Shown here: positions 45,501-48,571 of the stretch, piece after piece
Layout: every line of letters starts with the position of its first letter
Numbering within the stretch: position 1 is the first letter of the stretch
Made by a program: the position numbers and the translations under genes
From: Elusimicrobiota bacterium
GTDB taxonomy: Bacteria; Elusimicrobiota; UBA8919
Reading direction: 5' to 3'
DNA: 64,000 nucleotides
NCBI GenBank assembly: GCA_040757695.1
Contig: JBFLWK010000002.1
Span: 10,407-74,406 of the forward strand
The notes under the pieces: model-generated
What the model saw: the letters and a program-made list of their open reading frames with translations, nothing else
What the model was told of the DNA's origin: nothing
The model's database searches: none

Positions 45501-47886
45501 CCTTACACAAATGAGTAATAGTACCACATGGTATCGCCAACTCGGAATGGTCGCTAATAGCAGCATCAGATACAGATACTCGTATAATAACGATTTAGAT
45601 AACAAAGAACAGAACTTTAATACAGCATCTACAGACCGTGAATATACAATCCCATATTCAACAACAACAAACTACGACGACTGGGAAGAAAATCCGGATG
45701 CAATTGCAGGCACACTGGTTTATGCAGGGTATCAAAAAGCGAATCTTTATTGGGATAGAAATACAACCGCTGAAGAATTACTCGGCTACAATATCTATAG
45801 AAACGACGGGCTTACAAGCCAGACAACTATACAGCTAAATGCATCACCTGTCTCTTACAGCCAGCCATACACTGTAGAAGGACTTACACTTGGCAATACT
45901 TACTCATTCCTGATTCGTGCAGTTGATTCAGGTGGCCAAAAACTTGAAAGTTCTACCGCAACCGTTGTTTCCTGCTGGATTAGTAACCAGATTGTTTATG
46001 TTAATTTCGGTGTGCCATACACAATTGGGCTTGCAAGTTCGCCTTGGGGTGATAGTAGTAAAATCCAACTGCAACTCGCGATAATGTCATCAACACAAAC
46101 TTCAGTTTGGAGTTCAGCCGACAGAGCGAATATTACTAATGGAAAACTTGATATGACTGCAGATGCTACAAACAAAACCTATCGCGCTAGTGTGCCGCTG
46201 ATTAAAGGGCAGTACTACAATTTCTTGTTCTTTGCAGAAACAACCGCAACACCACCAGACGGGCTTAAAGCTAATACCGTATACTACGATTGCGTCTGGA
46301 ACGCTGGCACCTGGAATAGTTATTCTGTAGTTCCATCAACTGCAAAATTTATCACATCTAAAAGTTCAACTTCTATAACAGGTAATCAATACGGCTGGTT
46401 TGGTAACGCAGGCAAAGATAATGATGCTCGCAGAATCTTGTATGTGGATACAACACTTGACAATGATGCTACCTGGTATGTATTCGCTAATTTTGCATCT
46501 ACACCTACCGCACCAACATATATTCAAGCGATACCCGGGAATCAAAAGGTTACCCTTGTATGGTCTGCACCTTACGGCAATGCATGGATATGGCCACCAC
46601 CCCAAAACACAGGTAATGTGCCTGCAAGTGGTGGTGAGTCAATGAAAGCCGCAGATGTTGTCTGCGGCGGTGTCTACCAGATATATGTCTGCACAGATAT
46701 AGCAATCACAAACGATTTCTCTAAATATCAAGCAACTGCTACTGTTTCCGGTAGTTCGTTTACATATACATCCCCGCCACTCAAAAACGGCGTCACATAT
46801 TACTACATTATCCGTGCTTCAGATACCTTTAAGGGAATTGCTGGCGGAATTGACGGCAACTGCTACAGCGTATTTTCTGCCACTGTCTCTGCGTGCCCGA
46901 CTAACGAGTATGTAGTTGTAAAAATAAGAGTGAATAAAGGCGCAGAACCAATATGGCGTAATGTCCGAAAAACAATCGCATTCCAGGAAGGTCAAACCGT
47001 GTCCGCATGGGATGAAGTAGGCAGGTCTAATTTAACATCAACAGGTCGTGCTGTAAATATGACCGCACCTGCTGATGATTCAACCGAGCAGGAGTTTTCT
47101 GTAAATCTTGCTGGTGGAACAACTTACAATTTTATATTATTCGCATATTCTACATTCACAATCTCAGGACTTACCGTCGGAACAACATATTACGATACCG
47201 TCCCTACAAGCGGCTCTAATGGTATGGCAACCTCAACATCTACCGCTAATATCACATCACACGGTTCTGCGTGGTATGGCAATGTAGGTGCTACTGGCGA
47301 TTCCAGACGGCTTTTATATGTGCCACGATTATCTCAACTTGGTGGCGGTGCAACTTTGTATGTATATTGCAACTTCGCAGCCAGACCTACACAGTCGTCT
47401 GTGTATGCCACTGCTGCATCTTCTTATTCAATATTGTTAATGTGGACACCATATGGTGCCTGGGGAACTGATAGCGAATCATTCAAAGCTGCTGATGTCA
47501 TTGCAGGCGGGTTTTATTATGTTTATCGCTCGTCAGTTTCAGCATCAGGACCATATGTTTTGTGGGCTTCTACAGATGTTATGTCATGGACTGATGATGA
47601 TAAAGATACATCTGGTGATAACAAAGGGCTGATTGGTGGGAATGAGTATTTCTATGTTATTGTCGCATCAGACGCATACAAAGGTGCATCAGGTCAGGTA
47701 GCAATACCGAATCTGTATCGCACAGGTGCACCTGAATTCTCAACTGCAGATGCTAGTTTTACACCCGGTGAGCGGATACCGCTATATTTCAAGGTAGAAA
47801 GAAAAGATATTATATACCCGACTTTAGTCGGCTACGTAGAAAAAAGATTTACACCTGACTTACTTATACCCGACTTTAGTCGGTAA
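39523..47886 (+). CDS. giant (2787 aa) secreted GH13 alpha-amylase-family surface protein with beta-helix-like N-terminus, FN3, CBM9-like, CBM20-like x2-3 and three C-terminal modules of unknown function
   Basis: GH13 module ~42300-43600: [49 protein letters not shown]. CBM20-like: [12 protein letters not shown]...[18 protein letters not shown]. Only in-frame start (39523) lies inside the RAYT 3' end; the stop lies inside the REP family-2 cluster. Confidence 0.8.
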   Translation: [2787 protein letters not shown]

Positions 47887-47940
47887 AAACAAACAAGCCC
47901 ACTAAAGTGGGGAATAATTTTACACCCGACTTTAGTCGGC
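47812..47940. repeat. REP family-2 cluster (3x ACCCGACTTTAGTCGG + CCCACTAAAGTGGGG)
   Basis: Encodes the last ~25 aa and stop codon of the 2787-aa protein (...[23 protein letters not shown]). Confidence 0.75.
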
Positions 47941-48526: not shown

Positions 48527-48571
48527 CTTACACCCGACTTTAGTCGGAGAAAACAAACCCACTAAAGTGGG
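48461..48571. repeat. REP family-2 cluster (CCCGACTTTAGTCGG, ACCCGACTTCAGTTGG, ACCCGACTTTAGTCGG, CCCACTAAAGTGGG)
   Basis: Mirrors the upstream cluster 47812-47940. Confidence 0.75.

Follow-up and report, generated by a model that had tools for sequence, protein, structure and literature searches.

In this work, a stretch of 64,000 nucleotides from an Elusimicrobiota bacterium (assembly GCA_040757695.1, contig JBFLWK010000002.1, positions 10,407 to 74,406; hereafter the window) was analysed around RAYT-2, a gene for a REP-associated tyrosine transposase (RAYT), and the short hairpins of the repetitive extragenic palindrome (REP) type that lie beside it. The RAYT-2 open reading frame (ORF; 47954-48526, + strand) encodes an intact Y1/HUH transposase of 190 residues. 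Its core, residues 1-165 (47954..48448, + strand), carries the features of a Y1/HUH single-strand DNA transposase, namely H56-Y-H58, the catalytic Y115 and the motif GYIAGNPLKH, and is followed by a REP-derived C-terminal tail, NFKPDFSRLKEAQLTPDFSWLKEV (48449..48526, + strand), where the ORF reads on into the downstream array. The two RAYT-1 copies of the same window (38975-39559 and 62656-63210) share 80% identity with one another but only about 32% with RAYT-2, whose HUH and Tyr motifs are intact, so that RAYT-2 belongs to a second RAYT family, as an earlier note on this DNA, made from the sequence alone, had proposed.

The protein scores 36.5 bits against the Pfam family PF01797 (Y1_Tnp), for which the cut-off is 23, and is thus a member of the superfamily. 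Against the NCBIfam family NF047646 (REP_Tyr_transpos) it reaches E=1.2e-20 and 73.9 bits, and an identical protein from an Elusimicrobiota metagenome-assembled genome (MAG) carries the NCBI annotation "transposase". Relatives were collected with an exhaustive HMMER search, a word-indexed protein search having given just three, and 790 representatives were found at E<=1e-3 and 114 at E<=1e-10. An alignment of 39 homologs has T13, H56, H58, G78, Y115, N119 and H123 as invariant positions and NHYH, W(D/G).Y and GYI.GNPLKH as the motifs of the clade; 59 residues separate HUH from Y, and a conserved extension, F.EL..Y.FSS, comes after GYI.GNPLKH. The best match of a profile search among solved structures was E. 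coli TnpA_REP (4er8, E=1e-10), ahead of ISDra2 (2e-6) and IS608, and the alignment to 4er8 spans the Y..NP.KH..V..FS C-terminal extension. Furthermore, when the AlphaFold2 model of RAYT-2 (pLDDT 96.1) was compared by Foldseek, the template-modelling (TM) score was 0.70 for 4er8_A, with a root-mean-square deviation of 2.6 Å, and about 0.53 for the IS200/IS605 transposases (IS608, ISDra2). RAYT-2 is closer to TnpA_REP than to the IS200/IS605 TnpA, and this includes the C-terminal extension.

A 77%-identical ortholog (P0002, locus L002) is flanked by the same two genes in four metagenome contigs, and the comparison of the two genes over the 165-codon core gave dN=0.115 and dS=0.76 (dN/dS ~0.15). 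Because the motifs are intact, the fold matches, the ortholog is syntenic and these rates are low in dN relative to dS, RAYT-2 looks functional, is vertically kept and is under purifying selection. It is not a degenerate pseudogene, in the window or in the related genome; the earlier note had named a pseudogene in related genomes as one finding that would refute its proposal. Paralogs of the RAYT-2 clade inside one genome are only 36-60% identical, no tnpB was found at the RAYT-2 locus, and the many near-identical whole units, often with tnpB, that characterise IS200/IS605 elements were not found for the clade; in a limited sample, RAYT-2 seems to behave as a single-copy, vertically inherited gene. 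Several genomes contain two or three gene copies of the clade. One near-identical RAYT pair, at locus L019 of a Parcubacteria MAG, was rejected as an IS-type duplication, since it belongs to a larger 98%-identical segmental duplication (269-1150 and 2825-3706, period ~2.56 kb) that includes the RAYT homolog and its hairpins.

On both sides RAYT-2 is flanked by short palindromic repeats with the consensus TTA(C/T)A-CCCGAC-TTTA-GTCGG, some of them with an inverted CCCAC-TAAA-GTGGG partner. The first upstream copy, TATAC-CCGAC-TTTA-GTCGG (47809..47836, +; covariance-model match of 26.7 bits, E=1.9e-5), lies in the 3' end of a giant ORF (39523-47886), where it reads YPTLVGY. A truncated degenerate copy, TTTACACCTGACTTACTTA (47846..47863, +; read from the sequence), comes next, and then a REPIN-like doublet, TTATAC-CCGAC-TTTA-GTCGG, 14 nt, CCCAC-TAAA-GTGGG-GAATAA (47861..47920, +; matches at 47861(+) and 47893(-)), which contains the stop codon of the giant ORF. 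The third upstream copy, TTACAC-CCGAC-TTTA-GTCGG (47917..47944, +; 25.4 bits), stands 14 nt before the RAYT-2 start codon. Downstream, three REP units follow one another in tandem at intervals of 36 nt (48453..48552, +; matches at 48453, 48489 and 48525), of which the middle one has degenerated (TTCA loop, G:T pair); for this array, Tandem Repeats Finder gave 48456-48547, period 36, 2.6 copies and 85% matches. An inverted partner on the minus strand, TTATTT-CCCAC-TTTA-GTGGG (48553..48580; 24.1 bits), closes a doublet at 48525-48580. A CRISPR-like array was considered for the 36-nt repeats and rejected, since the "spacers" are themselves repeated and no cas genes lie nearby. A role of the hairpins as terminators was also rejected, no T-run following them, and an Rfam scan of the window returned no matches.

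As single-stranded DNA (ssDNA), the wild-type hairpin of this type is TTACACCCGACTTTAGTCGG. Exact copies of CCGACTTTAGTCGG start at 47818, 47870, 47926, 48462 and 48534, with degenerate copies at 48498 (TTCA loop, G:T pair) and 384 (TTCA loop), and exact copies of CCCACTAAAGTGGG start at 412, 47898 and 48558. With at most two mismatches, the two 14-mers were matched 20 and 14 times, against expectations of 0.19 and 0.27, and none of 100 shuffles equalled these values. The doublets themselves are present as the earlier note had described them, but the spacers within them are 14, 10 and 14 nt instead of 10-12. In the doublet at 47861..47920 the arms are inverted and the third stem pair differs by a compensated G:C to C:G change; as ssDNA it can form one long hairpin (-9.6 kcal/mol, z=-3.9) or two small ones. 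For the doublets in general, one long imperfect hairpin and two small hairpins have similar energy. The compensated base pair by which the arms differ speaks for every small hairpin being important by itself.

The same repeats occur in the window away from the gene. A copy of the doublet lies in an intergenic region 47 kb away (375..434, +; matches at 375(+) and 407(-), hairpins at 384-425), which bears out the dispersed copy that had been read at 381-426 and now rests on one exact and one degenerate hairpin copy as well as covariance-model matches. Three intergenic hairpins at 2637..2759 have other stems, TTTTAC-TCCCCAC (+), TTCTA-CGACGC (+) and TTCTA-CCCAAC (-), with matches at 2637 (19.6 bits), 2688 (27.9) and 2732 (27.5), and overlapping intergenic hairpins, TTCTA-CGAAAC-TTTA-GTTTCG / TTCGGT-TAAA-ACCGAA, are found directly upstream of RAYT-1a (38888..38931; 28.0 bits, E=7.9e-6). 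Dispersal without the gene is thus seen at three places of the window, and copies more than 500 nt from the gene also occur in other genomes. The exact window doublet was found in five further metagenome contigs (GC 0.34-0.46), once beside a RAYT-2 homolog.

The covariance model, R1, was built from 122 hairpins of other genomes only, with no window sequences, and gave 16 matches in the window at E<0.01. Its top three matches were the varied-stem hairpins at 38888, 2688 and 2732, and the next were the copies flanking RAYT-2, the doublet at 375-434 and the hairpin at 2637. One match, at 26286-26313 (TTCTA tag, TTCA loop, E=0.004), which is not among the hairpins of the earlier note, proved to be ordinary Fn3 coding sequence, PSNFYATSVTVSS, and was not accepted as a REP. 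In a census of the window by loop, 43 perfect GC-stem hairpins with tetraloops were counted, and their loops were TTTA in 13, TAAA in six and TTAA in nine, the latter being centres of perfect palindromes; every other loop was found at most twice. The varied-stem hairpins that the earlier note had listed exist, at 2646-2659, 2696-2711, 2736-2751, 38896-38911, 49949-49966, 49975-49992 and 50192-50209, although the last three carry a GTAG tag and belong to another class, described below.

A scan of one genome per GTDB species yielded 64 related loci. About 50 of these come from Patescibacteria, also known as the candidate phyla radiation (CPR), including Falkow-, Uhr-, Kuenen-, Buchanan-, Moran-, Magasanik- and Jacksonbacteria, Parcubacteria/Paceibacteria and one Saccharibacteria genome; one of the others is from Zixibacteria, and a few belong to MAGs that have no classification or bear other labels. 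Within 250 nt of the RAYT-2-clade genes, every GC-stem hairpin whose loop measures 3-7 nt was counted, with no preselection of the loop. The loops were TAAA (70), TTTA (57), TTCA (20) and TGAA (19), 166 in all, and every other loop was found five times or fewer. A set of 185 unique TT(T/C)A hairpins, to which the window, L001 and L002 contributed besides the 64 loci, has a C:G closing pair in 162 cases, a purine at -2 in 177 and a T at -10 in 149, and the consensus of the 5' flank is tTCTA or TTA(C/T)A. The stems, on the other hand, number in the dozens (e.g. CCGAC, GCCAC, CTGAC, GAGGT, GGGAC, CCCGC, CCTGGC), and individual loci have three to six different ones each. Upstream copies read TTTA in 61 of 95 cases and downstream copies TAAA in 64 of 94, so that the flanks are inverted with the tags pointing outward. 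Near the gene there are 4.96 hairpins per kb, against 0.09 at distances of more than 500 nt, a 55-fold difference; for this measure the near/far contrast and the loop controls were relied upon, as the swap-based shuffle mixes poorly (shuffled mean 8.6).

Moreover, the rule was recovered when pairing was not preselected. Of 73 unique sites of the form TTCTA-N6-TT[TC]A, 42 have at least five of six positions paired, with 26 stems at 24 loci, whereas TTCTA-N6 followed by any of eleven other tetramers gave 0-1 paired sites each; 42 of the 53 paired TTCTA-N6-NNNN sites have TTYA loops. A looser pattern, TT[CAT]TA-N6-TTYA, matched mostly AT-rich noise and was dropped for this strict test, and covariation statistics were left aside because they are circular for hairpins chosen by perfect pairing. 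In the protein tree, TTYA loops are spread across the RAYT-2 clade, and one subclade (L047, L050, L054, L063 and L068) has CAT or CAAG loops with the same TTCTAC tag; the loop type thus tracks the protein phylogeny.

Some other features of these loci were observed. The RAYT gene of the CAT-loop subclade (L047, L050, L054, L068) has its start codon in the loop of the hairpin (TTCTACCCTGCC-CATG) and its stop codon in GGCAGGG-TAG-AA, so that it sits inside a split palindrome, TTCTACCCTGCC-CATG...GGCAGGGTAGAA. At the ortholog locus (L002 ~415-455, L003 ~340-380), one REP is interrupted exactly where its closing C meets the TTTA loop, by a foreign hairpin, CCCCGTA-TCAAG-TACGGGG, similar to the CAAG-loop repeats of L063. 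This insertion is the same in two independent samples. The Elusimicrobiota RAYT-2 proteins (window, L002) nest among CPR sequences in the tree (e.g. L027, L024-L026, L044), and some CPR genomes (L017, L027, L073) share CCGAC and CCCAC stems with the window; this nesting and the common stems suggest that RAYT-2 may have been exchanged horizontally between CPR bacteria and Elusimicrobiota.

The RAYT-1 family served as a control from the same genome. Both copies are flanked by double-foot palindromes, GTAGACGGCA(A/C)TTAA(T/G)TGCCGTCTAC (38960-38985, 39561-39582, 62613-62640 and 63212-63233), and both genes contain an in-frame palindrome between HUH and Tyr (39297-39328, GSRRLNADY; 62942-62967, SSRHLSADY). 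With its GTAG double foot and in-frame repeat, RAYT-1 fits subclass 2.4 as that subclass is described in Quentin et al. (2018; PMC6006769). The flanking palindromes are conserved in four RAYT-1 relatives of 46-58% identity: three have GTAGACGGCA(C/A)TTAA(G/T)TGCCGTCTAC or a near variant, and the fourth (L080) has GTAGAGCACC...GGTGCTCTAC with an imperfect downstream copy. No TTYA GC-stem hairpin was found at these four loci, in 26 kb in total. Because the RAYT-1 relatives conserve their stems and have no TTYA hairpins, the two families of one genome follow opposite patterns, RAYT-1 with a conserved stem and the GTAG double foot and RAYT-2 with a loop that stays constant as the stem varies. Palindromes of the RAYT-1 type (GTAG...TTAA...CTAC) are also found in frame in the ORF 53117-54157 (53616-53641, 53726-53753 and 53877-53898, with peptides such as GSRHLSADY), at 16584-16611 within the ORF 8193-24557, and between genes at 25582-25609 and 3201-3232.

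A third hairpin class in the window has a GTAG tag, a variable stem of 7-8 bp and a TTTA or TTCA loop, and so joins a tag of the kind usual for RAYT-1 repeats with a loop of the kind usual for those of RAYT-2. Its members lie at 49945-49966, 49973-49994, 50187-50209, 53059-53082 and 59413-59434, and within genes at 4165-4192 and 20215-20242. They are weak under model R1 (50185, E=0.009; 53057, 0.011; 59410, 0.044; 49942, 0.32), and none was found in the flanks of the four RAYT-1 relatives (26 kb).

We consider it likely that RAYT-2 and these repeats form a REP/RAYT system, in which a vertically kept HUH/Y1 transposase of the single-copy type would bind and move the mini-hairpins. The repeat unit consists, in this order, of a tag TT(C/A)(T/C)A, a GC-rich stem of 5-6 bp whose sequence is nearly free, a closing C:G pair, a tetraloop TT(T/C)A and the complementary arm; a purine usually precedes the closing pair. 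The units are found as singlets, as 36-nt tandem arrays and as inverted doublets with different stems in the two arms, similar to REPINs and to bacterial interspersed mosaic elements (BIMEs). In the proposed mechanism, the hairpins would extrude in single-stranded DNA and RAYT-2 would recognise their constant parts, the tag and the apical C-TTYA-G, and not the sequence of the stem. The HUH site (H56, H58) would hold a metal ion, Y115 would cut and rejoin the strand, and units would thereby be copied to intergenic sites, mostly beside the 3' ends of genes; ORFs without an earlier stop would then extend into the repeats and acquire tails such as PDFSR and YPTLVGY. Binding, the site of cleavage and mobility are what we infer here from the sequence patterns. 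Recognition specified by the loop, or by the structure, was the central suggestion of the earlier note, and by comparison it now appears well supported for RAYT-2, as the 64 loci keep TT(T/C)A on dozens of stems and the RAYT-1 relatives keep their stem. The wider form of this proposal is more doubtful: it is possible that a whole RAYT clade centred on CPR/Patescibacteria reads or cuts a constant C-TT(T/C)A-G together with a TTCTA-like 5' tag on any stem, the reverse of the mode of E. coli TnpA_REP, and we advance it tentatively. If the apical module is read on any stem, one enzyme could therefore maintain a heterogeneous population of mini-hairpins.

Several points weigh against this interpretation. 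The NF047646 score of RAYT-2 falls under the curated cut-off of 80, a near miss that is consistent with a divergent subclass. The classical GT[AG]G tag 5' of the hairpin foot is missing from the RAYT-2 repeats, where GTAG near the hairpins is confined to the other strand, on their 3' side, in the form (G)TAGAA. The 55-fold concentration of hairpins beside the gene would also fit an IS-like unit with hairpin ends, and further RAYT-2 paralogs, each with its own stem, are possible in the genome beyond the 64-kb window. Because GTAG-tagged hairpins of varied stem also have TTTA or TTCA loops, caution is needed in assigning the loop rule to RAYT-2, and the loop may not be read by RAYT-2 alone. Furthermore, the co-crystal of E. 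coli TnpA_REP leaves the 5 bp nearest the tip uncontacted (PMC3479197), so the reading of the tip would be a new mode that departs from the sole structural precedent.

An autonomous IS200/IS605-like insertion sequence (IS), whose gene and terminal hairpins would transpose as one unit and leave isolated hairpins as solo ends or derivatives resembling miniature inverted-repeat transposable elements, would account for the outward-tagged inverted hairpins that bracket the gene at most loci, for the density near the gene, for the CAT-loop ORF lying exactly inside its split palindrome and for the two or three gene copies of several genomes. We regard it as unlikely, however, since copies within one genome are not near-identical (36-60%), RAYT-2 and its 77%-identical ortholog occupy the same chromosomal position between the same two neighbours, there is no tnpB partner, the fold and C-terminal extension are closer to TnpA_REP than to the IS transposases, and hairpins are dispersed without the gene. 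Quite unlikely, in our estimate, is that the C-TTYA-G apex would be a cleavage or joining site and not a determinant of binding, like the nick sites in the loops of other HUH endonucleases. The closing C (162 of 185) and the T that follows make a CT step at the stem-loop junction in every copy, and E. coli TnpA_REP cuts at CT (PMC3479197); the foreign hairpin of L002 and L003 is inserted at this very step, and in the CAT-loop subclade the entire RAYT gene lies within a hairpin loop. Yet the insertion is a single example, the Y1 transposases studied to date cut outside the hairpin, and such a site is compatible with loop-specified recognition and does not exclude it.

That the hairpins belong to the host, for instance as stabilisers of RNA, binding sites for proteins or structures similar to terminators, with a loop kept for a host function and only an incidental association with RAYT genes, seems to us very improbable. 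Most copies do lie directly downstream of genes in the transcribed orientation, the same loop is found on the GTAG-tagged hairpins, and co-option of REPs for mRNA stability and protein binding is known (PMC3733652). Nevertheless, the hairpins track the RAYT-2 clade over 64 loci in many phyla-level lineages and are nearly absent more than 500 nt away, their loop type shifts together with the protein subclade, neither T-runs nor Rfam matches were found with them in the window, and the 26 kb around the RAYT-1 relatives, which come from related organisms, are free of TTYA hairpins. A REP/RAYT system built on RAYT-2 thus remains the interpretation that we prefer.

The repeats also contribute to coding sequence. 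The last ~25 residues of RAYT-2, with PDFSR and PDFSW, are the hairpin array translated in frame, which agrees with what the earlier note had read there; the homologs P0003 and P0004 stop at about residue 165, and the tail of P0002 is a different repeat-derived sequence. Likewise, the giant ORF and its ortholog match through YFKVE and then have separate repeat-derived tails, which in the window's protein takes up the last ~28 residues. The tails of RAYT-2 and the giant protein are read-through events and not insertions. The earlier note had further seen an invasion of other proteins in frame, and had assigned an insert in a GGDEF protein (58107-59522) to the same repeats. Repeat-derived tails are real, but for the RAYT-2 class they concern only ORFs that run into 3' arrays, namely RAYT-2 and the giant protein. 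The GGDEF insert is real as well: eight extra residues, KCSPDFSQ, are missing in seven orthologs (68-31% identity) and sit in a loop before the last helix, with the GGEEF site intact. Its DNA, GTAG-CCCCGAC-TTTA-GTCAGGG followed by TGAGCGAAGTGAAAC (59409..59449, +), shares the CCGAC-TTTA core, but because of the GTAG tag and a different 3' module it represents another repeat class and a different composite. The same composite is also intergenic at 53059-53098, and the common 3' module is GTGAGCGAAG(C/T)GAA. This module, as GTGAGCGAAG(C/T)GAA(AC), was found three times (~2374-2395, 53083-53098 and 59435-59449), twice directly 3' of a GTAG-tagged hairpin and once within GTCATTGTGAGCGAAGCGAAACAATCTC, in an intergenic region that is rich in repeats (2290-2780). 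Codons 1-24 of the GGDEF ORF (58107-58178) have no counterpart in the seven orthologs, and the start is probably M25 (MLNKY...). In practice, such repeats give spurious C-terminal extensions and small in-frame inserts in annotated MAG proteins.

Among the known systems, E. coli TnpA_REP (PDB 4ER8; Quentin subclass 2.2, Bertels group 2) is the closest to RAYT-2, with the HUH/Y1 fold, the best sequence and structure match, the Y..NP.KH..V...FS C-terminal extension and a vertically kept, single-copy gene flanked by its own short hairpin repeats. In addition, the inverted doublets combine two hairpin types as BIMEs combine Y and Z REPs. On the other hand, the identity is only 19%, the tag is TT(C/A)(T/C)A and not GTAG, the stems are 5-6 perfect bp where those of the TnpA_REP repeats measure ~10 bp and contain a mismatch bulge, conservation lies in the tetraloop with a free stem, and the hosts are Elusimicrobiota and CPR bacteria where those of TnpA_REP are Proteobacteria. 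TnpA_REP reads GTAG, the lower 3' stem and the mismatch bulge in the 4ER8 structure (PMC3479197). With the IS200/IS605 TnpA proteins (IS608, ISDra2), RAYT-2 shares the HUH/Y1 core, and their subterminal ssDNA hairpins, recognised by shape, with a short guide-like sequence at the 5' foot, are counted here as a further likeness; the TM score of ~0.53, the lack of tnpB, the divergent syntenic copies and the many gene-less hairpins set it apart.

The subclasses of atypical structure in Quentin et al. (2018), that is, subclass 2.6 of Bacteroidetes (also Bertels group 5) and class 3, resemble the RAYT-2 clade in that their flanking hairpins lack GT[AG]G, are weak and short, and have copies elsewhere in the genome (PMC6006769). 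By the descriptions given there, subclass 2.6 (NH[LIV]H, WQ, YIH[QN]NP and a 21-aa insert) and class 3 (Y....Q and a CnGA foot) differ in their motifs from RAYT-2, with its NHYH, W(D/G).Y and GYI.GNPLKH, and so does subclass 2.4 (GTAG...CTAC double foot, NH[IFV]H / WQ / YIxNNP, inserts between HuH and Y), to which RAYT-1 conforms. Within these subclass descriptions, no rule of a conserved tetraloop is given for subclass 2.6 or class 3, and no subclass with NHYH and GYI.GNPLKH together with tetraloop hairpins was found (PMC6006769). Rickettsia palindromic elements (RPEs) and intragenic REPs (Di Nocera, 2013; PMC3733652) are palindromes tolerated in frame at termini or in loops, like the C-terminal tails and the GGDEF insert; unlike them, the events of the RAYT-2 class are 3' read-through tails only, and the lone internal insert is GTAG-tagged. 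REP/RAYT systems, genomes in which each of several RAYTs has a separate REP class, BIME/REPIN doublets and in-frame REPs have already been described, as far as these sources cover them (PMC3733652, PMC6006769, PMC3116915), and the REPs described are tagged with GTAG or CGTC and have loops mostly of 2-3 nt (PMC3733652). A literature search for REPs in CPR bacteria or Elusimicrobia found no paper linking them.

Other repeats were noticed in the window. Downstream of RAYT-2, at 48590-48760, the ribosome-binding site and start region of the next gene are duplicated (GGGGGTGATTAAAATGGGAAGATGG and GGAGGTGATTAGAATGGAAAGATGG), with a hairpin, CGACGA-TTTA-TCGTCG, and ATTCGCG repeats separating the copies; at the matching position of the ortholog locus (L002 1075-1173) there is a hairpin with the same loop and another stem, GTAG-GGGCGAA-TTTA-TTCGCCC. 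The called start of this ORF at 48604 is probably too early, as the signal peptide comes after the ATG at 48728. Upstream of the ORF 3484-6333, the intergenic region 3233-3470 contains degenerate repeats of ~22-26 nt of the type GGGATGATGA(C/A)(A/G)AGT(T/A)CCTA(T/G).

REP/RAYT systems are the best-known long-lived, vertically inherited repeat populations of bacteria. To our knowledge, they have been characterised almost only in Proteobacteria, with GTAG tags, conserved stems and a single co-crystal structure. The RAYT-2 locus and its ~60 relatives point to a RAYT clade in Elusimicrobiota and mainly in the small genomes of CPR bacteria, for which the rule is a constant loop and tag with a free stem. 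If this is correct, it would give the CPR bacteria their first described REP/RAYT system. Moreover, if the tip of the hairpin is indeed read, it would mean a second mode of DNA recognition for HUH/Y1 enzymes and a simple, programmable module for the recognition of ssDNA hairpins, and it might account for the origin of perfect stems, arbitrary in sequence, around an unchanging loop, for instance through insertion targeted to the loop or through fold-back synthesis.

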